Below are positions 39,929-49,298 of a stretch of DNA of 64,000 nt, in pieces. The translations under genes and the position numbers were made by a program. Source of the DNA: Waterburya sp. (GTDB taxonomy: Bacteria > Cyanobacteriota > Cyanobacteriia > Cyanobacteriales > Xenococcaceae). Numbering within the stretch: position 1 is the first letter of the stretch; every line of letters begins with the position of its first letter. The notes beneath the pieces were generated by a model. The model was not told the origin of the DNA and did no database searches. It saw nothing but the letters and a program-made list of their open reading frames with translations. The stretch covers positions 2,976,001-3,040,000 of the forward strand of contig CBDCJV010000002.1 of NCBI GenBank assembly GCA_965217895.1, in the 5' to 3' direction.

Positions 39929-40612
39929 ATGGCAAAAGGCGATCTCGTATACGCATATCGAAACTTGTGGCAGCTAGACGGACTATATAAACATTACGGT
40001 ATTGACTGCGGTGACGGTACAGTAATTCATTACCGTAAGCCCAGTGAAACAATTGAAAGAACTGATTTAGCAACTTTTAGCCGAGGAAACCCTATCTACG
40101 TCGCTGAATATAGTGATGGCTTTGACTACATCCCAGATGCGGTAGTTGAAAGAGCCGAAAGTCGATTAGGAGAACAAGAATATAATTTACTGTTTAATAA
40201 CTGTGAACATTTTGCTAGCTGGTGTAAAACTGGCGTTAGCGACAGCCGACAGGTAAGAAACTTTTTACCCCTTATAAATACGCTAGATACTTCAAAACTA
40301 TATGAACCAATTAAAAACGCCTTGAAAGGTAAAGACAGCAAAACTGCACAACAGCTACTAACTGAATCTCTAATAGATATTAAATCAGTTTGGAATCAGA
40401 TCCAGCCTGAATATCAAAAAGCGATCGCCGAAATACAGGTTTGGGAAAAAGTAGCTAAAAAGGCTTTAAAAAGTAATAGAGAAGATTTAGCTCGTGCTGC
40501 GATCGCCAAAAAGTTTGACTATCAAAAAAAAGCTACCAAATTAGAAATTGAATTAAGTGAACTTGCCGAAATGACCGAAAATATTGTCCGCAATCAACAA
40601 GAATTTAGTTAA
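39929..40612 (+). CDS. LRAT/NC-domain (permuted NlpC/P60) protein with PspA-like C-terminal coiled coil
   Basis: HYGID...VIHY, YNLLFNNCEHFA; C-terminal WEKVAKKALKSNREDLARAAIAKK. Confidence 0.85.
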   Translation: MAKGDLVYAYRNLWQLDGLYKHYGIDCGDGTVIHYRKPSETIERTDLATFSRGNPIYVAEYSDGFDYIPDAVVERAESRLGEQEYNLLFNNCEHFASWCKTGVSDSRQVRNFLPLINTLDTSKLYEPIKNALKGKDSKTAQQLLTESLIDIKSVWNQIQPEYQKAIAEIQVWEKVAKKALKSNREDLARAAIAKKFDYQKKATKLEIELSELAEMTENIVRNQQEFS

Positions 40613-40625
40613 TTGTTTAACCTAG

Positions 40626-40655
40626 GCGTTTGACAAATTTACTTTGTCAAACGCT
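40626..40655. terminator. Hairpin between convergent genes
   Basis: gcgtttgacaaa-tttac-tttgtcaaacgc. Confidence 0.65.
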
Positions 40656-40697
40656 CACGTTCTGTCAGACTCCAAATACTATTAAACTGCATATTAA

Positions 40698-41858
40698 CTA
40701 TGCACTGGCTTCTGCATATACGGGATAGCGGAAAATAGCTAAAGCATCTGTATCTGCTGGCATATCCTCCTCTAAAATATAGACATTGCCACCTTGAAGG
40801 AAAGTTTGAACTACAGCAAAATTGATCAAATCAATACTGTCTTCGGCTGATTCTGTCTGGAATATTACCTTATTTGCCTGTGGTTGAAATTCACCCCACT
40901 TTTGAGCATCGGCAGCGACAAACAGAGTCTCTACCTGTCCATTAGCAGCACCAGTAATTATTTGCTCTAGCTGAGAACTAGCTTCATTCGTATCAGATAG
41001 CTGATGATATTTGTCCATTGCTTGTTGGCGTTGGGCAGCAAAATGGGGTTCAATAATCTCCCAGGCTGAACGATGTAAATCTTCTGTAGCAACATCTTCA
41101 GGATTACCAGTAATTCCTGCTTCTAATAAATTATGGTATGAATTTGCTTCATGGTAGATGGGTAAAAGGTATTCTACTCCAGCTAAGATTAAAGGAGTGT
41201 TTTCTGATTGTAAAGCTGCTTTTAAACCGTTATCTATTTGATCGAAGAAACGTTTTATTTCATCTTTATTATCTGTGGTGCCAACTCCTTGACCATGATA
41301 AATAGGACTATTTCCTGAATTAGCACTATGATACTGAGTCTGTTTTTCGGGATCATCATATTTCAAAGCTTCAGCTAAACTAACTGGAACTGATTCAGGT
41401 AATTGTATTTGATTAATGCTGTAGTGGCTACCCAAGAAAAACTTCACCTGATTTTGGGATAGTGCTAATAAATAAAATTTACTATCGTTAGAAATTATGG
41501 GTAACAAAGGCTTAAGATAAAAGCGATCGCTTACCTCAACTTCTGCTTGGAAACTGTAGGGAAGACGATAATATTGAACATTATCAACATCAATAAAAAA
41601 TGCTAACCCACAATCTTGATGTTGCCAAAAATCATAATCATCTATATAGCTTTCAGCAGATTTTAATGATTTTGCTAACTCTTCTGATTTGTTCAACTGC
41701 TCTATCTTTTGTTCAGCTTCGCGAATTAAATTTTTAAAGCGGATTGTATTTTTTCTAGTTTCTGTTCCCGCCTTTTCAGCAGGCATATAAATAGAAATAC
41801 AGGTTGAGCCAGTTGTTTGAGCTAGCTTTTGAAAATCAGAGCGAGATAATTCAGTCAT
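40698..41858 (-). CDS. Bacterial archaeo-eukaryotic release-factor-like (baeRF3/baeRF7 type) protein
   Basis: CISIYMP...IRFKNL...FW.HQ..GLAFF...LKPLLP...HGQG...PLILAG...GQVETLFV...AIFRY. Confidence 0.75.
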   Translation of the reverse strand: MTELSRSDFQKLAQTTGSTCISIYMPAEKAGTETRKNTIRFKNLIREAEQKIEQLNKSEELAKSLKSAESYIDDYDFWQHQDCGLAFFIDVDNVQYYRLPYSFQAEVEVSDRFYLKPLLPIISNDSKFYLLALSQNQVKFFLGSHYSINQIQLPESVPVSLAEALKYDDPEKQTQYHSANSGNSPIYHGQGVGTTDNKDEIKRFFDQIDNGLKAALQSENTPLILAGVEYLLPIYHEANSYHNLLEAGITGNPEDVATEDLHRSAWEIIEPHFAAQRQQAMDKYHQLSDTNEASSQLEQIITGAANGQVETLFVAADAQKWGEFQPQANKVIFQTESAEDSIDLINFAVVQTFLQGGNVYILEEDMPADTDALAIFRYPVYAEASA

Positions 41859-41958
41859 AAAGATTTTTTAAAATGGTTGGTAACGTCTACTTATATGACA
41901 ACAAAAAAATAAGGCGATCGCATCCTTCTTTCGATAGTAAAAGATAAACAAAGCCAAA

Positions 41959-41988
41959 AAAATAAGGACGTTGATTTCAGCGTCCTCA
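41959..41988 (-). terminator. Rho-independent terminator of the DUF2267 gene
   Basis: Minus strand tgaggacgctgaaatcaacgtcctta followed by a T run. Confidence 0.65.
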
Positions 41989-42030
41989 ATATTTAAACAT
42001 TAAATTAATAGATGTATGATGCTATATTTT

Positions 42031-42885
42031 CTAGGCAGCTTCCCACATATCTTTAATTTTTCCTGGTAAAAACTCACTAACCTGACTAATTTTATCTGAA
42101 GATAATTCCTCTTTGGTAGCTGAAAAAACTGCATCAATCACTTTTTCGGCAGTTGTGCCGCGAGGCACTCCACCTTCTTTTTCGATACGATAGATAAAGG
42201 TATCTGCATCAAACTTTAAAGGCGGACGGATATTACTTAACCAGGCGACTATAGGATTATCATCGTGCCAAAGCTTGGCTATTTCCTCTTGTAGTCTTTT
42301 GTTACTAGCATTTTCCTCTGCTTCTGAGTGTAATTCTGCTTCTACTGCTTTAGATGCTTCGGTGGTCATGAGATCGCGCATGGTGCGATAAACGATAGTA
42401 GTTAAGTCTCTAGCATCAAAAATATCTTCTAATTCACCTCTGAGCATAACCTTCTCTAGAAAAGGCGTGTCTTTAGTAGCAATAGGTGTAGAAGGCCCTT
42501 TGTCTATATCATTTGGGGGATTTTTTTCCATCCGCTCAAGCATTTTTTCCCCTTTTGCGGTAAGTTTTGCTTTTTTAAACTTAATTAAATGAGGTAAAGG
42601 ACCATCGGGTGCGCCAAAAGTGTTGGCAACGCGAAAATCTACTTCTTCTTCATCGATTAAATCGGGTACATCTTCTTGATTGGCGTAGGCATTACCCGAA
42701 AACTCAGCATCAATGTACTGCTTCTGCTCTAAATAATCAAGGTGACCTAAAAAATCAGATATAGTCAAATTGCGCCCCGTAAAGTCTGTAGCTTGAAAGT
42801 CTACAGAGTGTTTTCCACTACCATCTCCTTGATGAATTTTATTAAGCAGGATGTACATTACATCATCTCTTAGAGGTATAGGCAT
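42031..42885 (-). CDS. DUF2267-domain protein with N-terminal winged-helix-like extension
   Basis: FLEKVM...DARD..TIVYRTMRD...AVFSATKEEL...LPGKIKDMW. Confidence 0.75.
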   Translation of the reverse strand: MPIPLRDDVMYILLNKIHQGDGSGKHSVDFQATDFTGRNLTISDFLGHLDYLEQKQYIDAEFSGNAYANQEDVPDLIDEEEVDFRVANTFGAPDGPLPHLIKFKKAKLTAKGEKMLERMEKNPPNDIDKGPSTPIATKDTPFLEKVMLRGELEDIFDARDLTTIVYRTMRDLMTTEASKAVEAELHSEAEENASNKRLQEEIAKLWHDDNPIVAWLSNIRPPLKFDADTFIYRIEKEGGVPRGTTAEKVIDAVFSATKEELSSDKISQVSEFLPGKIKDMWEAA

Positions 42886-43371
42886 ATATTTATTATTCTC
42901 TATTATTTTTTTACCAGGAAGATCTTAATAAAAATATATCAATTGTCGCATCTGCTTTAGGGATAATATTTAGATCTAACTTTAGATAGAGATGTGAGCG
43001 GGTAAAATCTGGGTTGGATTGTCCCTATTGTCTACAACTTTTGATCTGTAGGCTAGTTGAAAAAAGAAATGATCTTATTTTCGTATACCTTCTAACAGCA
43101 TGACCAAGGATTATAAACTACCCTATCTTTAAGCAGGCTACTATAGAGTAATTTGTAATTTAGCTAAAGGATCGATCAGTTTGATAGCAGTTTTTTCGGA
43201 GCTATTTATAGCTGACAACAATAGGATAAGAATTGTTAATGTCATCTTGTATTTGGTTTAAAAAATCTAGCTATTTTCCTAGCAAGCAGTCCCACTCACG
43301 CCTCATGTTTAGGATTGATTTAATTATTGTTCGTTTTTAAATAAACCCCTTTTAAATAACCCTAAAAAAAT

Positions 43372-43647
43372 ATGTTACTCGAAACTTTTGCCAAACGTTT
43401 GAAAACTGTTGCCAACTCTCTGGTCAAAAATAAATTTATTCAACCTTATTGGGTGGAAATCATTACGCAGCAACCTTCCTGTACCTACTATTTCGGACCT
43501 TTTGATTCTCGTGCAGAAGCCAAGAAAATTCAGTCTGGTTATGTAGAAGATCTGATGTCGGAAAAAGCGATTGGGATCAGTGTTGATATTAAACGCTGTT
43601 TACCTACTAGGCTAACTATTACGGACGAGGAGTACTTTGCTGAATAA
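43372..43647 (+). CDS. DUF1816 family protein
   Basis: YWVEIITQQPSCTYYFGPF...GYVEDL..E.A..I...IKRC.P..LTI. Confidence 0.85.
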   Translation: MLLETFAKRLKTVANSLVKNKFIQPYWVEIITQQPSCTYYFGPFDSRAEAKKIQSGYVEDLMSEKAIGISVDIKRCLPTRLTITDEEYFAE

Positions 43648-44713
43648 TGTTTAAAACCACCTTTTCTTCTGGACTAAGCTGGTTAGATTTTGATTCTATA
43701 TTTGCCGTCTGGCTCATCAAGTCTAGTAAAGATCCATCTTCATAAGCTTCCAGAATAGCTGGATGAATGTAATATTTACGACAGGTTGCAGGACGATTAC
43801 CAAGCTGTTCGGCAACATTTTTTATTGCCTGAGTAATATTTTTACGTGCTGTATTTTCTGAGTCAAATTCACCTATTTCATCTAGCTCAATAGCAGCTAG
43901 CAGTGTGCCTGCCCAAGTGCGAAAGTCTTTTGCCGTAAACTCTTGCCCAGTTATGGTTTGGAGATACTCGTTTACGTCTGCTGAATCAACAAGTTGCTTC
44001 TCGCCAGATTCATCGTAATATTTAAATACTTCATATCCTGGTATTTCTTGACATTGCTTAATCACGTTTGCTAATCGGCGATCGCGCAGTTCTATTTCAT
44101 GATCCACACCGCTTTTGCCGCGAAATTCAAACTTTACCTTGGTGCCTGTAATATCTATATGGCGATCGCGCAGGGTAGTTAAGCCAAAAGAGCGATTCTT
44201 CTTAGCATACTGGCTGTTTCCCACCCTAATTAGAGTGGTTTCTAATAGCTGTACCACCGTTGCTAAAACCTTGTCTCTAGATAAGTCTTTTTGACGTAGA
44301 TGCTTGGCTGTAGTTGCTCTAATCTGGGGTAAGGAGGCAGCAAATAACACCATTCGATTAAACTTATGGCGATCGCGAATTTTGCGCCAGTCAGGATGGT
44401 AAAAATACTGTTTGCGCTTTTTAGCGTCTTTGCCAGTCGCCTGTAAATGCCCATGAGGTAAATGACAAATAAAGACATCGGTTAAAGCAGGGGGAATAGT
44501 TAAAGACTTGAGACGTTCTAATTCTGCTTCATCGGTAATGCGATCGCCTTTGCGATCTAAATAGCTAAAACCCCGACCAGCTTTTTTCCGTTCAATTCGT
44601 AAACTATCAGCCCGAACATATCTCAAGCCAGCAAGTTTGGCCGTCTTTTCTGGCTCAATGTCCAAAACCTTAACGATGTCGCTATTAGCTATCTTGTTTA
44701 CTGCTAACACCAT
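43619..44713 (-). CDS. DNA topoisomerase IB (bacterial type)
   Basis: AGLRYV, GHLQATG.DAK.RKQY.YH, IRVGN..Y...N.SFGLTTL, FRGKSG, KDFRTW, LGN.PATCRKYYIHP. Confidence 0.93.
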   Translation of the reverse strand: MVLAVNKIANSDIVKVLDIEPEKTAKLAGLRYVRADSLRIERKKAGRGFSYLDRKGDRITDEAELERLKSLTIPPALTDVFICHLPHGHLQATGKDAKKRKQYFYHPDWRKIRDRHKFNRMVLFAASLPQIRATTAKHLRQKDLSRDKVLATVVQLLETTLIRVGNSQYAKKNRSFGLTTLRDRHIDITGTKVKFEFRGKSGVDHEIELRDRRLANVIKQCQEIPGYEVFKYYDESGEKQLVDSADVNEYLQTITGQEFTAKDFRTWAGTLLAAIELDEIGEFDSENTARKNITQAIKNVAEQLGNRPATCRKYYIHPAILEAYEDGSLLDLMSQTANIESKSNQLSPEEKVVLNIIQQSTPRP

Positions 44714-44720
44714 TTTATTC

Positions 44721-45284
44721 CTATCCCTTATCGCTTTTTAGCGGATCGTGTCCCCAATTCATCAGCGAATAACGCCAGGGAGTTTTTTCTATATCTCCTG
44801 ATGGTTTTTGTGCCAGATGACGGTGAACATAGCCCACCACCTTTTTCATATGCTTAAAGTCTTTTTTCTGATAGTCAGACAGATCTTTATTTAAAATTTT
44901 GACAATTTTCTTGCCAGATTTACGCCCTTTGATTTTTCCTTTTTTGTCTTTTTGTCCTACAGAATTGCTTTCCTCCGTCTTTAGCCATTGCTTAATTTTA
45001 GAAGCATTCATATTGACTGCTGATTGAAAGTCTTCTAATACTTCTTGCTGTTTGGGTTCGAGCTTTTTATCGTCTTTTATTGAAGCCAAGGCTTTAGTTT
45101 TGTGTATGCTAGTTTTGCCTGTATTTTCGTTTTCAACTAAATAGCGGGGTTTGTTTTTAGTCGCGCTGATTTTTTTACCGTCTACCGTGGTAGATTCAGT
45201 AATTTTTTGAGTTACTTTTCCAGTAGTTTCTCCTCTGCCTACCTTCCACTTCACGCGATCGCCCTGTTTGAATTTAGTTGTCAT
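44721..45284 (-). CDS. DUF2945 (Hva1-like) plus DUF3140 fusion protein
   Basis: FKQGDRVKW...G.TTGKV...PRYLVE; AVNM...WL.T.ES..VG...HMKKVVGYVHRHLAQ.P...WRYSLMNWGHDP. Confidence 0.8.
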   Translation of the reverse strand: MTTKFKQGDRVKWKVGRGETTGKVTQKITESTTVDGKKISATKNKPRYLVENENTGKTSIHKTKALASIKDDKKLEPKQQEVLEDFQSAVNMNASKIKQWLKTEESNSVGQKDKKGKIKGRKSGKKIVKILNKDLSDYQKKDFKHMKKVVGYVHRHLAQKPSGDIEKTPWRYSLMNWGHDPLKSDKG

Positions 45285-45519
45285 AGTTTAAAGTTATTTG
45301 AAATCTCACCTCTAGATAATGGCTGATTGATAAGTATTTCAACCTCTTCTAAAAGACTGATTTTCAACAAAAGCTAATAGCTAAAAAGAGACGAAAAGTT
45401 TTTAAGAGAAACTATTGACAATGTTTGATGTGAATAAAAAAAAGCTGATTCTTCCATTTCTATCTAAAATTTGTCTGTAAAAATCAAAATATAATACTGG
45501 GGGAACTTTCCACTACTAC

Positions 45520-45785
45520 CCCACTCTCGCGCATTCCCAAGCCAGTCCGTTGCGGGTCTGTGACCCGTTGAAGGAACTGGCGTTTGCGCCTGAAGGCGAC
45601 GCGGTGAGACAGTTGCGGTGGTGAGACACTTGCGTTGCGGGTCTATGACCCGTTGAGCAAAGTGTTGAAAGGTTTCACCGGCATAAGCAAACTGTCGAAC
45701 CCTTTAGGGGTCGCTCGCCTGTTGGGGACGTGACGACCCTCCCCAAAGCCGAGGCAACGTGGGGCGAATGTATTCGCCCCTTTAA
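45520..45785. repeat. Nested cluster of GC-rich small palindromic repeats
   Basis: 24 nt repeat cgttgcgggtct(g/a)tgacccgttga at 45548 and 45633; inner element nested in gacagtt...aactgtc; ggggcgaa...ttcgcccc at 45761. Confidence 0.75.
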
Positions 45786-45947
45786 GTGCCGTCTTCCGTA
45801 AACATTAACCATGATTTCACTCATTAGCTAATTTTTAATTATCTAGATGAAGAATTGAATCTACTCGAATTAAGTTCTCAAAAAAATCTTTATTTCTCCT
45901 GAAATATTGGACTTTTTATAAACTGATAGTTAAAAAGTCAATTCACA

Positions 45948-46337
45948 TTAGGCGTATTGACAATTAATTTGCAGCCATGCAGTTAAATCTGTCTCAGAAA
46001 CCTCTGACTTAGCAATACCTAACATAATCTTGACCACCTCTACTTCAGTTGCTACTAAACTAACCCTGTTAATTTCTAAAAAGACAGCCATCACAATAAA
46101 TGCAGTCCGCTTGTTTCCATCAACAAAAGGGTGATTAATCGCGATCGCATAACCCAACGCAGCAGCCAACTCAAATAAACTAGCACCTTGATTGTAGTTA
46201 GCAATATTAGTAGGTCTATATAATGCGCTTTCTAGACTCCCTTCATCTATAAATCCAGTTGCCCCACCAAAAAGAGCAAGCTGTTGAACATGGATGGCTT
46301 TGGCTTGAGCTAGGGTGACAAATCTAACCTGGCTCAT
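45948..46337 (-). CDS. Doc/Fic-family toxin
   Basis: HPFVDGNKRTA Fic/Doc motif. Confidence 0.93.
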   Translation of the reverse strand: MSQVRFVTLAQAKAIHVQQLALFGGATGFIDEGSLESALYRPTNIANYNQGASLFELAAALGYAIAINHPFVDGNKRTAFIVMAVFLEINRVSLVATEVEVVKIMLGIAKSEVSETDLTAWLQINCQYA

Positions 46338-46558
46338 TTTGCCAACTCTTTAAGAGCGTTACGATAACGATTAGAAATTCCTTTGGCGGCTTCCATTACT
46401 TCTTCAAATTCTGGGTCATAAGGAGTTATTAGAACCCCTTCGGGAGTTTTCGTAACGTACAAACAGTCTCCTTCGGTAACATTTAACTGATCGAGAAGCT
46501 CTTTGGGTATACTCGCACCCAGGGAATTACCTATTCGGCGAATGTTTAATTTCATCAT
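46334..46558 (-). CDS. AbrB/MazE-family antitoxin
   Basis: IRRIGNSLGASIPKELL..LNV.EGD; 4 bp overlap with doc; GTAACTAC direct repeat upstream (46567-46586). Confidence 0.9.
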   Translation of the reverse strand: MMKLNIRRIGNSLGASIPKELLDQLNVTEGDCLYVTKTPEGVLITPYDPEFEEVMEAAKGISNRYRNALKELAK

Positions 46559-46729
46559 CTAACTTTGTAACTACTTTCGTAACTACAATATACCATAATC
46601 CACATTATACTTCAATCATGCCACGCCACATTTCATCAGTGCGATCGATAATTCCATCTACAGCGAGATGTATCTTTGGTTAGATATCTGCAAAATAAAG
46701 ACGTAGTAAAAAAGACTTGTTTTATCTTA

Positions 46730-47290
46730 ATGAACGACCAAAAATATCAAAAACGCGCTGTAGGAACATTTGCCACTCGCCAAGATGCCGAAGCAGCCCT
46801 AATAGAGCTTAGAGATGCAGGTTTTAATATGGATAAAATATCGGCGATCGCTCAAAACCCAGATAAAAAAGAAAAATTAGCCGATGTGGAAGTTAAAGCA
46901 ACATCTCAAAGAGTCAAAGAGGGTGTGGAAACAGGAGCTTTTATGGGAGCGACAACAGGAGGGATATTAGGCTTAATTGGGAGCTTAGGTATTTTAGCGA
47001 TACCTGGAGTAGGAGTGGCTACAGAGGTTGCCGTATTGTTGGGTAATGCTCTTTTGGGCAGCGGTATTGGTGCAGCAGGAGGAAGTCTAGTTGGTGCGCT
47101 GATCGGCTGGGGAATTCCTGAAGAGCAGGCGGCTTACTACGATCGGCTTTTGTCCCAGGGAAATTATCTGGTTTTAGTAGAAGGTACAGAAGCAGAAATA
47201 AACGGTGCAGAAGCTATTTTGCTTAATCGCCAAATTAGCAACTGGAATATTTATAATGCTCCTGGCAACAGTAGCGTATTAGGAGTTTGA
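46730..47290 (+). CDS. General stress protein (YflT/17M-like, glycine zipper)
   Basis: RAVGTF...AEAAL.EL...GF, glycine-zipper TM, GALIGWGIPEEQA..Y...G.YLV. Start ATG at 46730. Confidence 0.82.
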   Translation: MNDQKYQKRAVGTFATRQDAEAALIELRDAGFNMDKISAIAQNPDKKEKLADVEVKATSQRVKEGVETGAFMGATTGGILGLIGSLGILAIPGVGVATEVAVLLGNALLGSGIGAAGGSLVGALIGWGIPEEQAAYYDRLLSQGNYLVLVEGTEAEINGAEAILLNRQISNWNIYNAPGNSSVLGV

Positions 47291-47300
47291 AAACTATTTT

Positions 47301-47903
47301 ATGCTTGAATTTATTGTTAATAGTGTAAATTCTCTTGGTTACGTAGGAATCGCTTTATTGATGGCGTTGGAAAACATAATACCGCCTATTCCTTCAGAAC
47401 TGATTATGCCTTTGGCTGGATTTGCCGTAACTCAGGGAAAGCTAAACCTGATCGGCGTAATTATAGCAGGGACTGTAGGTTCTGTAGCAGGGGCAATTCC
47501 CTGGTATTTTTTGGGAAAATATTGGGGCTTAAAACGCACCAAAGCGATCGCCGATAAATATGGCAAATGGTTGACCGTTTCTGGCGCAGATGTAGAGCAG
47601 GCTAAAAACTGGTTTGATAGAAGAGGTTATATTGCAACAGCTATGGGTCGTCTTGTACCAGGCATCAGAACTTATATATCTATTCCCGCAGGCATTAGCA
47701 GGATGCCTTTGCTCCCTTTTTTGGCTTATTCAACGGCAGGATCGATTGTTTGGGTTAGTTTGCTGACTTATGCTGGCTATATTTTGGGGGAAAACTACGA
47801 ATTGGTAGGAACTTATCTCAAGCCCATAAGTATATTAGTTGCCATTGCTGTAATTTCTTTGGTGATCTACTGGGTTATAAAAAGAAAAAGACACCACATT
47901 TAA
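47301..47903 (+). CDS. DedA family membrane protein
   Basis: LENIIPPIPSELIMPLAG, GRLVPGIRTYISIPAG. Confidence 0.93.
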   Translation: MLEFIVNSVNSLGYVGIALLMALENIIPPIPSELIMPLAGFAVTQGKLNLIGVIIAGTVGSVAGAIPWYFLGKYWGLKRTKAIADKYGKWLTVSGADVEQAKNWFDRRGYIATAMGRLVPGIRTYISIPAGISRMPLLPFLAYSTAGSIVWVSLLTYAGYILGENYELVGTYLKPISILVAIAVISLVIYWVIKRKRHHI

Positions 47904-48012
47904 GTAGATGGTTGTAACTAAATATGAAATGAATCGGTTCGCGACTGGGGACTGGGGATTAGGAATAAAATTTCGTCATCAAGTCTTATAAATTATTTCG
48001 CCTACCTACTTA
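47901..48012. mobile_element. MITE (TAAGTAG(G/A)TGG end family) containing GGGGACT heptamers
   Basis: taagtagatggttgtaactaa ... ttatttcgcctacctactta; begins in the dedA stop codon. Confidence 0.65.
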
Positions 48013-48109
48013 ACTACAGTTAATCAAGCTTCAAAACTCACTCAAACCGAGAACAAAAACGTAAATAAATCTTTGCAAGAGGATAAGAAAGATCAAAAAG
48101 AATCCAATA

Positions 48110-48250
48110 TACAGCCATTATAGAAAATAGATGAATCAAAAGGGCTATGTCGAGTCGCCGTAACCTTTCTGACTTCTGACTCCGTGCGACTAAAGCCTTT
48201 GGGACTTCCAAAAAAGCTTAACCTATGTCAATTAATTGGAATAACTATTA
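48110..48250. mobile_element. Degenerate MITE (TATAGTCATT family)
   Basis: Right end tatgtcaattaattggaataacta matches the 63438 copy; weak left end tacagccatt. Confidence 0.45.
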
Positions 48251-48512
48251 AGTTGCTAACTTGTTCGTCTGTTACCTAAGACCGTTTTGATGAAGGATTG
48301 CGCCTTCCCTTGGTAACAACTAAGCAGAGGAAGCGATAAAAACTCTGCACCTAGTTAGCTTAACTTTAATTACTACTGTCCGAGAATCTGGCGATCGCTC
48401 TCCTTCGATTCTCAGCAATGGGTCACAACGGTACAACTCCCATCCAGTAAATTTTGTTTTTGGTTATATCAGGTATGTTAAGCGAAATTCATCTCGCTCA
48501 ATTCCGTCGCAA
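48250..48512 (-). ncRNA. Candidate highly structured non-coding RNA of unknown family
   Basis: One hairpin plus two three-way junctions; G-U pairs only on the minus strand; complementary loops (see findings). Confidence 0.55.
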
Positions 48513-48791
48513 GTTATATTCTTTCTCTAAACTTTTTACAAAATAAGTAACTCTGGGATTATATCTTTTTGAATAGATAGAAACTCTTAGACTCATTTAG
48601 GTACAAATTTTTATCCTTTACCCAAACGAAATTAAAGTGTACTTCATCAATACAAAATAATGTTATCTAAAACTTTTCAAGTCAACCATCCGCAGTCAGA
48701 ATATTAAACAAAGAACAATTGATTAAAATGAGAATTACTAATTACAAACAGTACTATTATCGGTTTCATTTATTAGCTATATTTTATATCA

Positions 48792-49298
48792 ATGTCTAAT
48801 AAACTACTTCTGACTTCTTTCCAAACTTGGCTACCTCACCAAATATCAAATTCTTCTGATGATTTACTAGAAACAATCCAAAAGCAGCGATTTGCTAAAG
48901 ATTCTTTATTCTTTCTCAGAAAGCTACCTGTTGATATAGAATTAGCTTCTGAACAAGTTATCGAAACAATTAAAGCTATTAAGCCGAAAGGCATTCTTTG
49001 CTGTGGGATGGCAGAATCAAGAGAAAAACTGATGGTAGAGTCTAATGCTGTTTGCAGAGAAGACTGCATTTTTACTCTAGTCGATCTCAATAAAATGATT
49101 ACTTGTTTGGCACATACTGAAGTTAGTCATAATGCAGGCAAGTTTGTTTGCGAGGGATTGTATTATGAAATTCTCAAATATACTCAAGCAAATACTTTAA
49201 AAATTCCCTGTATTTTTATTCATGTTCCTGTGCTTTACGCCAAAAACATAGACATTATTCAAGAAGACTTTACCGCCATTATTAATTTCTTGCTTTGA
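48792..49298 (+). CDS. Pyroglutamyl-peptidase I family (peptidase C15) protein
   Basis: LLTSF, NSS, LPV, VESNA, SHNAGKFVCE, FIHVP. Confidence 0.85.
   Translation: MSNKLLLTSFQTWLPHQISNSSDDLLETIQKQRFAKDSLFFLRKLPVDIELASEQVIETIKAIKPKGILCCGMAESREKLMVESNAVCREDCIFTLVDLNKMITCLAHTEVSHNAGKFVCEGLYYEILKYTQANTLKIPCIFIHVPVLYAKNIDIIQEDFTAIINFLL

Follow-up and report, generated by a model that had tools for sequence, protein, structure and literature searches.

A two-unit folded RNA of cyanobacteria, half of it catalogued as CyVA-1, and its genetic linkage to a predicted membrane protein and a SnoaL/NTF2-like protein

The window analyzed here, a 64,000-nt stretch of the Waterburya sp. genome (contig CBDCJV010000002.1, positions 2,976,001 to 3,040,000), contains a gene-free gap between a DedA/VTT-domain gene (47301-47903, plus strand) and a pyroglutamyl-peptidase-like gene (48792-49298, plus strand). 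An earlier note, made from the sequence of the window, placed in this gap a novel minus-strand RNA of ~265 nt with two three-way junctions and three long-range loop pairings, and read it as a compact tertiary-folded noncoding RNA, ribozyme or switch. The locus thus poses the question of whether such an RNA is real, how far it extends, and what it might do. The proposed stems and loop complementarities were all found where the note had placed them. The RNA is single-copy in the Waterburya genome, converging with the DedA gene and diverging from the peptidase-like gene, both of which are neighbors by local synteny only.

Strand, extent and two-unit structure

On the minus strand the region folds better than 198 of 200 shuffled sequences (z = -2.51), whereas the plus strand is unremarkable (z = -0.83). 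In the stems of 52 homologues, 171 G-U cells stand against 11 A-C cells, and because of this excess the strand can be fixed as minus, which bears out the original assignment. Homology in the 54 copies that we collected spans both junctions and ends where the junctions end; by this comparison the conserved unit is 48450-48263, about 190-200 nt, and a lineage-specific outer stem extends it to 48250. The proposed length had been overcalled by ~60 nt at the 5' end, where the hairpin at 48501-48478 (minus strand) and the 5' TTGCG are both broken in the four closest relatives and fall outside the conserved unit, the hairpin being present in Waterburya and probably not part of the RNA. The note reported no ORF, and no conserved small ORF was seen here, the 52 rows having a longest ATG frame of 9 to 51 codons.

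The Rfam family RF02965 (CyVA-1) matches exactly junction 1 (48450-48373, model positions 1-77) with 76.4 bits and an E-value of 4.7e-16, the gathering cut-off being 41.4 bits. The note had reported no known family, adding that a hit to one would remove the novelty of the RNA, and for domain 1 novelty is lost because of this match. Over 48100-48650 at E-values up to 10, Rfam gave CyVA-1, two chance-level matches and nothing else, in agreement with the note's failure to match tmRNA, RNase P, SRP or 6S, and with no match to a group II intron fragment or known self-cleaving ribozymes. Junction 2 gives a weak second CyVA-1 alignment (18.7 bits), and its core (48354-48263, minus strand) is by this alignment and by covariation a paralogous three-way junction that lies beyond the Rfam model. 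According to its published description (Weinberg et al. 2017, PMC5737381), CyVA-1 has an average length of just 78 nt, although the search that found it was directed at large intergenic regions. As catalogued it is a single domain of ~78 nt, whereas the homology covers both junctions in 54 copies. Judged from these alignments, the RNA is built of two related units, of which junction 1 is CyVA-1, and the 77-position model covers less than half of it.

Domain 1 (48450-48373, minus strand, as are all features below) consists of P1, P2 with loop L2, and P3 with loop L3; the three helices covary around two large conserved loops. L3 (48406-48389) carries a conserved purine-rich run followed by one strand of a kissing helix, K2 (48399-48394). 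A variable linker, together with the lineage-specific outer closing strand of domain 2, occupies 48372-48355 and is far longer in some lineages; the 3' strand of that outer stem is placed at 48262-48250 by the fold and the limits of homology. Within domain 2, loop L2' (48343-48329) holds a U run, the other K2 strand (48337-48332) and an invariant UCC, as seen in the alignment and in the covariation of K2. The cap hairpin P4' (48307-48292; helix 9, 100% paired) closes a Y-N-N-A-A-Y loop in which the AA is invariant in our alignment A2, and an 11-nt bulge (48291-48281), defined by covariation and RNAalifold, comprises the 3' strand of a second kissing helix, K1 (48286-48281), and an invariant CA.

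A2 contains 52 of the 54 collected copies; of the two left out, one has an insertion of 45 nt and the other is a tandem copy that aligned poorly. Over both junctions, 93.8% of 3040 cells are paired and 44 of 59 pairs show two-sided change; no shuffle of 500 reached this pairing score, and slid controls were 40-49% paired. RNAalifold recovered the nested fold unaided and left the K1 strand of domain 2 as the 11-nt bulge. In our covariance model R1, three domain 2 pairs are off register (columns 161-163 x 192-194, where RNAalifold has 163-193 and 164-192). Both three-way junctions are confirmed by covariation. The long closing stem drawn for junction 2 is present in Waterburya, but it is lineage-specific in sequence and only its inner three pairs can be aligned (helix 6, 84% paired). 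The description as a compact tertiary-folded RNA stands insofar as both junctions and two of the three loop pairings covary, but the word novel does not hold for domain 1. This is a real folded RNA gene, half of it catalogued as CyVA-1, and we hold the fold as drawn to be very probably correct.

The note had warned of a HIP1 site in one loop and of a MITE end at the 3' side. Both are real, and both are harmless to the call: HIP1 occurs in just 14 of 52 rows of A2, within L3 and in the Waterburya lineage only, and an origin of the signal as a HIP1 or MITE artifact was rejected because the RNA is single-copy and covarying. The MITE-like element is a low-copy repeat (48152-48248, no strand assigned) whose end, at 48248-48235, has 20 occurrences in the genome and adjoins the RNA at the place often taken, in homologues, by a terminator hairpin. 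The same repeat end also supplies the stop codon of this genome's SnoaL-like gene, outside the window (G000:C2:3767005-3767464; L371:1006-1465); this may be a coincidence or the trace of a rearrangement. Just after the DedA stop codon (47901-48013) lies another low-copy repeat, which has short terminal inverted repeats and an end motif found 45 times in the genome. Further away, at 39929-47290, the window holds LRAT-PspA/IM30, baeRF7, DUF2267, topoisomerase IB, Tudor-DUF3140 and YflT-domain genes and a Fic/Doc-MazE toxin-antitoxin pair, a cluster that looks like a general-stress island.

Loop pairings and single-unit relatives

Two of the three proposed cross-domain pairings are borne out by covariation. 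K1, whose 5' strand lies in loop L2 of domain 1 (48432-48424; 6 bp, one unpaired base, 2 bp), joins this loop to the bulge of domain 2 (48432-48427 x 48286-48281). It is 97.6% paired in A2, with 37 cells of two-sided change compared with 10.7 in shuffles, and 95.3% paired in alignment A4 (38 compared with 11.6), which was selected by a pattern without K1 positions and in which 66 of the 78 rows are new. K2 joins L3 of domain 1 to L2' of domain 2 (48399-48394 x 48337-48332) and is nearly invariant in A2. In a wider set of 181 motif matches, viral forms included, from which 14 with the flanking stem missing were dropped, positions 1, 2, 5 and 6 switch together between A-U and G-C (167 matches), the last position showing 22 A-A mismatches; the central two pairs were fixed by the search pattern, and they change in step in two further copies (L365, L367). 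The third pairing, of the 5' TTGCG with a CGCAA loop, fails because this cap loop varies, taking 11 forms of Y-N-N-A-A-Y in 52 rows.

Pairing the loops across the domains leaves 10 and 14 mismatches in 312 cells, against 67 and 42 when they are paired within the domains. On the evidence of this covariation, the two units are locked by swapped loop pairings, L2 of each half with the L3-type strand of the other, and the invariant unpaired residues cluster around both kissing helices. The tandem RNA may close on itself or chain with other molecules, both of which are compatible with the covariation.

A metagenome scan for one junction bearing both K2 loops returned 99 distinct matches, 74 of them at the right spacing. 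Among the 74, 62 are perfectly self-complementary, and their loops change together; no second L3 motif was found within 300 nt of these single-unit RNAs where the flanks allow. The commonest loop pair of the monomers is that of K1 in the window, and the third commonest that of K2. Because single-unit relatives carry self-complementary loops, the tandem RNA can be read as a fused, loop-swapped dimer, and the simplest reading of the sequences is that a homodimerizing unit was duplicated and fused, after which its two contacts diverged.

Viral contigs carry 3 monomers and 15 forms with an L3 hairpin ahead of the junction bearing L2'. Of 12 such forms examined, 9 have a 6-nt palindrome at the end of the third arm, once a different palindrome, several of the forms being near-identical. 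Terminase adjoins 1 of 14 viral loci scanned, the viral neighbors being variable, and no tRNA or tmRNA lies within 3 kb of 18 viral loci. With blastn, the RNA had no match among phages and plasmids; looser viral patterns led to 107 fetched loci, of which 100 were scored with R1 and 2 had E-values below 0.001. Among the phage forms with the palindromic loop (L232-L243), one group lies between thymidylate synthase and DNA polymerase genes and another among head genes.

Distribution, flanking signals and linked genes

CyVA-1 is matched in 58 of 61 genomes of the host's family (Xenococcaceae), and blastn found the DNA of the RNA in 24 of 401 genomes of the phylum. Among named records, the two-domain RNA occurs mostly in cyanobacteria of many orders, and also in Acidobacteriota (range set, 72 loci with a model match among the 80 scored of 118). 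Within the class the range is patchy: 57 of 301 genomes are positive, comprising 52 pattern matches (55 less 3 false) and 5 found by model, and the negative status of the others comes mostly from the same pattern, which missed these 5 true cases that targeted checks brought up. None of 50 genomes of one taxonomic family has the RNA.

A TAnnnT hexamer lies 15-24 nt ahead of P1 in 81 of 118 homologues, compared with 21-43 in other bins. In the window the most likely -10 hexamer is TAACAT (48480-48475; TAATAT in relatives), which would place the start of transcription at about 48468 and which is a better candidate than the TATAAC proposed before. A 14-nt box conserved in the genus (48519-48506), overlapping that TATAAC and the TTGCG and not enriched elsewhere in the genome, stands about 25 nt ahead of the -10 hexamer, a position that fits a possible activator or regulator site. 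A terminator-like hairpin follows the RNA in 56 of 117 homologues, whereas the upstream count is 6 and shuffles give 10 and 6; after the Waterburya RNA none was found, and the repeat end sits directly there. Downstream genes differ among homologues and often converge with the RNA, and the next one here is on the opposite strand. From these flanking sequences we infer that the RNA is a stand-alone transcription unit. A CyVA-1 transcript has been reported at low abundance in halite cyanobacteria (10.1101/761684).

We surveyed the neighbors of the RNA at 128 distinct loci with 1.5-kb flanks. A gene for a six-helix membrane protein of ~230 residues, from an unnamed family, adjoins 33 of them, 32 times upstream on the same strand, often at 93-306 nt, and once downstream. 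A SnoaL/NTF2-like gene adjoins 21 of the 128, in all four orientations, and clusters of the RNA with both genes occur in different orders (G604, G537, G573, G572, G636). Both the RNA and the membrane gene lie within about 2 kb of each other in 27 of the 50 genomes that have both. The RNA is genetically linked to the two proteins.

The membrane protein has no Pfam or NCBIfam match, DUF21/CNNM included. Its predicted fold (pLDDT 90.6) has six membrane helices, a small N-terminal sheet and a C-terminal helix; both ends are charged, cytoplasmic by charge, and the soluble ends are only modestly basic. Searches gave no convincing solved relative and no Foldseek match at an E-value of 0.001, the best natural structural match, TMEM45A (Z 11.8, rmsd 3.5, 158 aligned), being within the range common for helical bundles, and the ESM Atlas gave only clusters of hypothetical proteins. 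The SnoaL-like protein matches TIGR02246 and SgcJ-like structures, and the hydrophobic, signal-like stretch at the N terminus of 16 of 18 such proteins suggests that it is probably exported.

The membrane family is found in 104 of 301 genomes. In 44 of the 48 with the full-length protein, defined by a match that reaches the C-terminal helix, the RNA is present, compared with 6 of the 56 with a short form that lacks this helix; for the SnoaL-like subfamily the figure is 38 of 43, and the five SnoaL-positive genomes without the RNA remained negative when searched with the model. This pattern holds inside five mixed taxonomic families, with the qualification that the genomes are related and not independent, so that significance is overstated, that genes next to the RNA were the source of the protein profiles, a choice that favors relatives in RNA-bearing lineages, and that the RNA checks were aimed mostly at protein-positive genomes, which favors the link. 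In the host's family the membrane protein is present in 52 and the SnoaL-like protein in 41 of 61 genomes, and one genome of the same genus (G020, 99% complete) is without the RNA and without either protein. We consider a functional link of the RNA to the two proteins probable; that the RNA binds the membrane protein directly is possible, with the odds somewhat against it.

The partnership is not strict. The Waterburya genome has no homologue of the membrane protein and keeps its SnoaL-like gene 740 kb from the RNA, and four close relatives (G030, G049, G055, G056) show the same pattern without the membrane protein. Their RNA cores differ from that of Waterburya at 3-6 of 186 sites (2-3%), compared with 18-24 of 132 sites (14-18%) in the upstream DNA and 11-21% of DedA third positions. 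Because the core is conserved where the membrane protein is missing, either the RNA is still under selection or the protein was lost recently. In all, 7 of 57 RNA-positive genomes are without any form of the membrane protein and 19 without the SnoaL-like protein. The membrane protein was not found in any of 5 Acidobacteria genomes that carry the two-domain RNA, two of which gave only weak NTF2 matches, nor in the viral contigs.

Other neighbors were seen. A PRK06701-type short-chain dehydrogenase adjoins the RNA in 5 of 128 loci in two arrangements (L040, L041, L042, L277, L282) and is possibly a further linked gene; the dehydrogenase neighbors of the RNA fall into separate groups, one of 5 loci. 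An unnamed acidic protein of ~150 residues with a Cys/His-rich C terminus is encoded directly upstream in nine loci (L005, L007, L013, L014, L016, L028, L256, L264, L322), perhaps as plain synteny because the arrangement is always the same. At one locus (L375, G621:C123, genome 83% complete) fragments of the membrane-protein and SnoaL-like genes are adjacent, and the RNA was not found in that genome.

Possible roles of the RNA

The reading that we prefer, with a probability of about 45%, is that the RNA is a scaffold in a membrane-linked module. A tandem duplication of a self-complementary CyVA-1-type three-way junction would have produced a stand-alone, trans-acting RNA of about 190-205 nt. 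Its two halves fold together with pseudo-two-fold symmetry, the L2 of either one being paired to the L3-type strand of its counterpart. In most cyanobacteria that carry it, it would form one module with the six-helix membrane protein and the probably exported SnoaL/NTF2-like protein, the folded RNA being a rigid scaffold bound to both cytoplasmic parts of the membrane protein, N-terminal and C-terminal, and the NTF2-like protein binding or converting a small hydrophobic molecule outside. Such a module might serve an envelope or general stress response; the stress role is suggested, weakly, by the YflT-domain, topoisomerase IB and PspA/IM30 genes nearby, and the direction of signaling is likewise conjectural. 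Waterburya would have lost the membrane protein and retained the RNA and the NTF2-like gene, and because the RNA was kept after this loss it must have an activity or partner independent of the membrane protein. The most explicit version, in which the full-length CyVA-1 RNA would be the cytoplasmic core of a small membrane-anchored ribonucleoprotein, with the exported NTF2-like protein sensing or converting an outside molecule, the membrane protein relaying and its long C-terminal helix gripping the fused RNA dimer, is doubtful.

In an account that we think rather unlikely, the RNA acts alone or with a universal host factor. It would form an RNA-only dimer or oligomer, either to sequester a protein or to hold a metabolite or ion in its conserved K2 core, and the two proteins would share no more than regulation or inheritance, as members of a stress cassette. 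From monomers to tandem forms and phage forms, only the K2 module stays constant, and the phage forms replace K1 by a palindromic loop, as would be expected of RNA-only dimers (cf. PMC12286853). Phages and Acidobacteria without the membrane protein, the conservation of the RNA after loss of that protein, and the stress-type genes near the RNA in the window (YflT domain, topoisomerase IB, PspA/IM30) all fit this account, but it leaves unexplained why, within one protein family, the RNA tracks the long form and not the short one, and why the three genes have repeatedly re-clustered in different orders.

That the RNA is a ribozyme, with a kissing-locked core placing invariant unpaired bases for cleavage or another reaction, seems improbable. 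The invariant unpaired residues around both kissing helices, the carriage by phages and the compact tertiary fold would suit catalysis, but no Rfam ribozyme matched even at E-values up to 10, the RNA is a promoter-to-terminator unit without a mobile element or repeated substrate context, and the pseudo-symmetric, linker-tolerant design suits a scaffold equally.

There is only a slim chance that the RNA is a cis element, either a pair of riboswitch aptamers or a 3' element in the mRNA of the membrane protein. Riboswitches with aptamers in tandem exist, as for glycine and glutamine, which lends this idea a precedent, and the RNA often lies shortly after the membrane gene in the same orientation, as would suit a 3' element. 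The downstream gene is on the opposite strand here, however, and varied and often convergent elsewhere, just over half of the genomes with both (27 of 50) keep the RNA and the membrane gene close, and the RNA has its own promoter-like signal. It holds no constant position upstream of one same-strand class of gene, as a riboswitch would, and for this reason, and because promoter-like and terminator-like signals flank it in homologues, the switch suggested by the earlier note is unlikely. An ordinary small RNA that base-pairs with mRNAs is very improbable, for all that Rfam files CyVA-1 under "Gene; sRNA" and that the RNA is a stand-alone unit with conserved loop sequences, since every conserved loop is engaged in a covarying helix and the loop letters change with the partner loop and not with an outside target.

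The scaffold reading can be set against known systems. With CyVA-1 as published the RNA shares the three-way junction, the occurrence in Cyanobacteria and Acidobacteriota and the intergenic position with no fixed neighbor, but the model covers 78 of about 190-200 nt, is followed here by a second, paralogous junction, and as a one-domain model cannot show the cross-domain exchange of loops. No protein link was found in searches of the CyVA-1 literature outside the supplement of PMC5737381, which may treat copies, flanks or neighbors, and CyVA-1 is not mentioned in two supplementary files of PMC7002113. What is new is the gene linkage to the membrane protein and the SnoaL-like protein. The boundaries of a catalogued orphan RNA are also corrected, and it gains the first candidate partners found for it, so that its function can be put to direct test in cyanobacteria that grow in culture, Nostoc among them.

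The closest functional parallel is OLE RNA, whose occurrence correlates with that of its membrane partner OapA (PMC11332333). With OLE and its proteins OapA, OapB and OapC, as portrayed in PMC11332333 and PMC12286853, our RNA would share a structured stand-alone form, a correlated membrane protein, a dimer-type architecture and a possible stress role; it co-occurs with, and often neighbors, a membrane protein gene, with exceptions that include the Waterburya genome. It differs in length (about 200 nt compared with about 600 nt), in its occurrence in Cyanobacteria and Acidobacteriota and not Bacillota, in having no Rfam OLE match, and in its partner, which has six predicted helices without a DUF21/CNNM match, compared with four in OapA, and can be lost. 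By analogy, our best guess is that the RNA works like OLE without being OLE RNA. Should the membrane link prove to be physical, OLE would not be the only structured RNA associated with membranes, and if the membrane-anchored ribonucleoprotein were true, cyanobacteria would have a second, unrelated OLE-like device, made from an RNA module that serves phages and soil bacteria as a free homodimer.

Covarying kissing loops, palindromic loops that switch from one palindrome to another and carriage by phages recall the RNA-only multimers ROOL, GOLLD and the OLE dimer as reported in PMC12286853; the RNA described here is far smaller, its bacterial form holds both partners in a single chain, and no cage has been seen for it. 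The pairing of units through loops has other parallels. The phi29 pRNA joins three-way junctions hand in hand through two complementary loops, and the c-di-AMP riboswitch has a pseudo-symmetric two-junction design with two-fold pseudo-symmetry. Neither matches the RNA in sequence; the RNA, unlike pRNA, is chromosomal and not tied to a packaging motor, and, unlike the riboswitch, it has no regulated downstream gene here.

The self-complementary monomer, the fused and loop-swapped tandem, and the palindrome-dimerizing phage form would make up a natural series in which RNA domain swapping was fixed by duplication. Further variation in copy number and form was seen among the bacterial RNAs. Truncated copies in one genome (L367 and L368, G488), which has only the short membrane protein, are without the K1-bearing arm of domain 2, and in another (L080) domain 1 is collapsed. 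In close relatives (L017, L018, L020) the RNA is followed directly by a decaying extra copy that comprises domain 1 alone, two loci (L043, L300) hold copies 560-730 nt apart, and other genomes contain two or three intact tandem copies of the whole RNA (L042, L056, L299).
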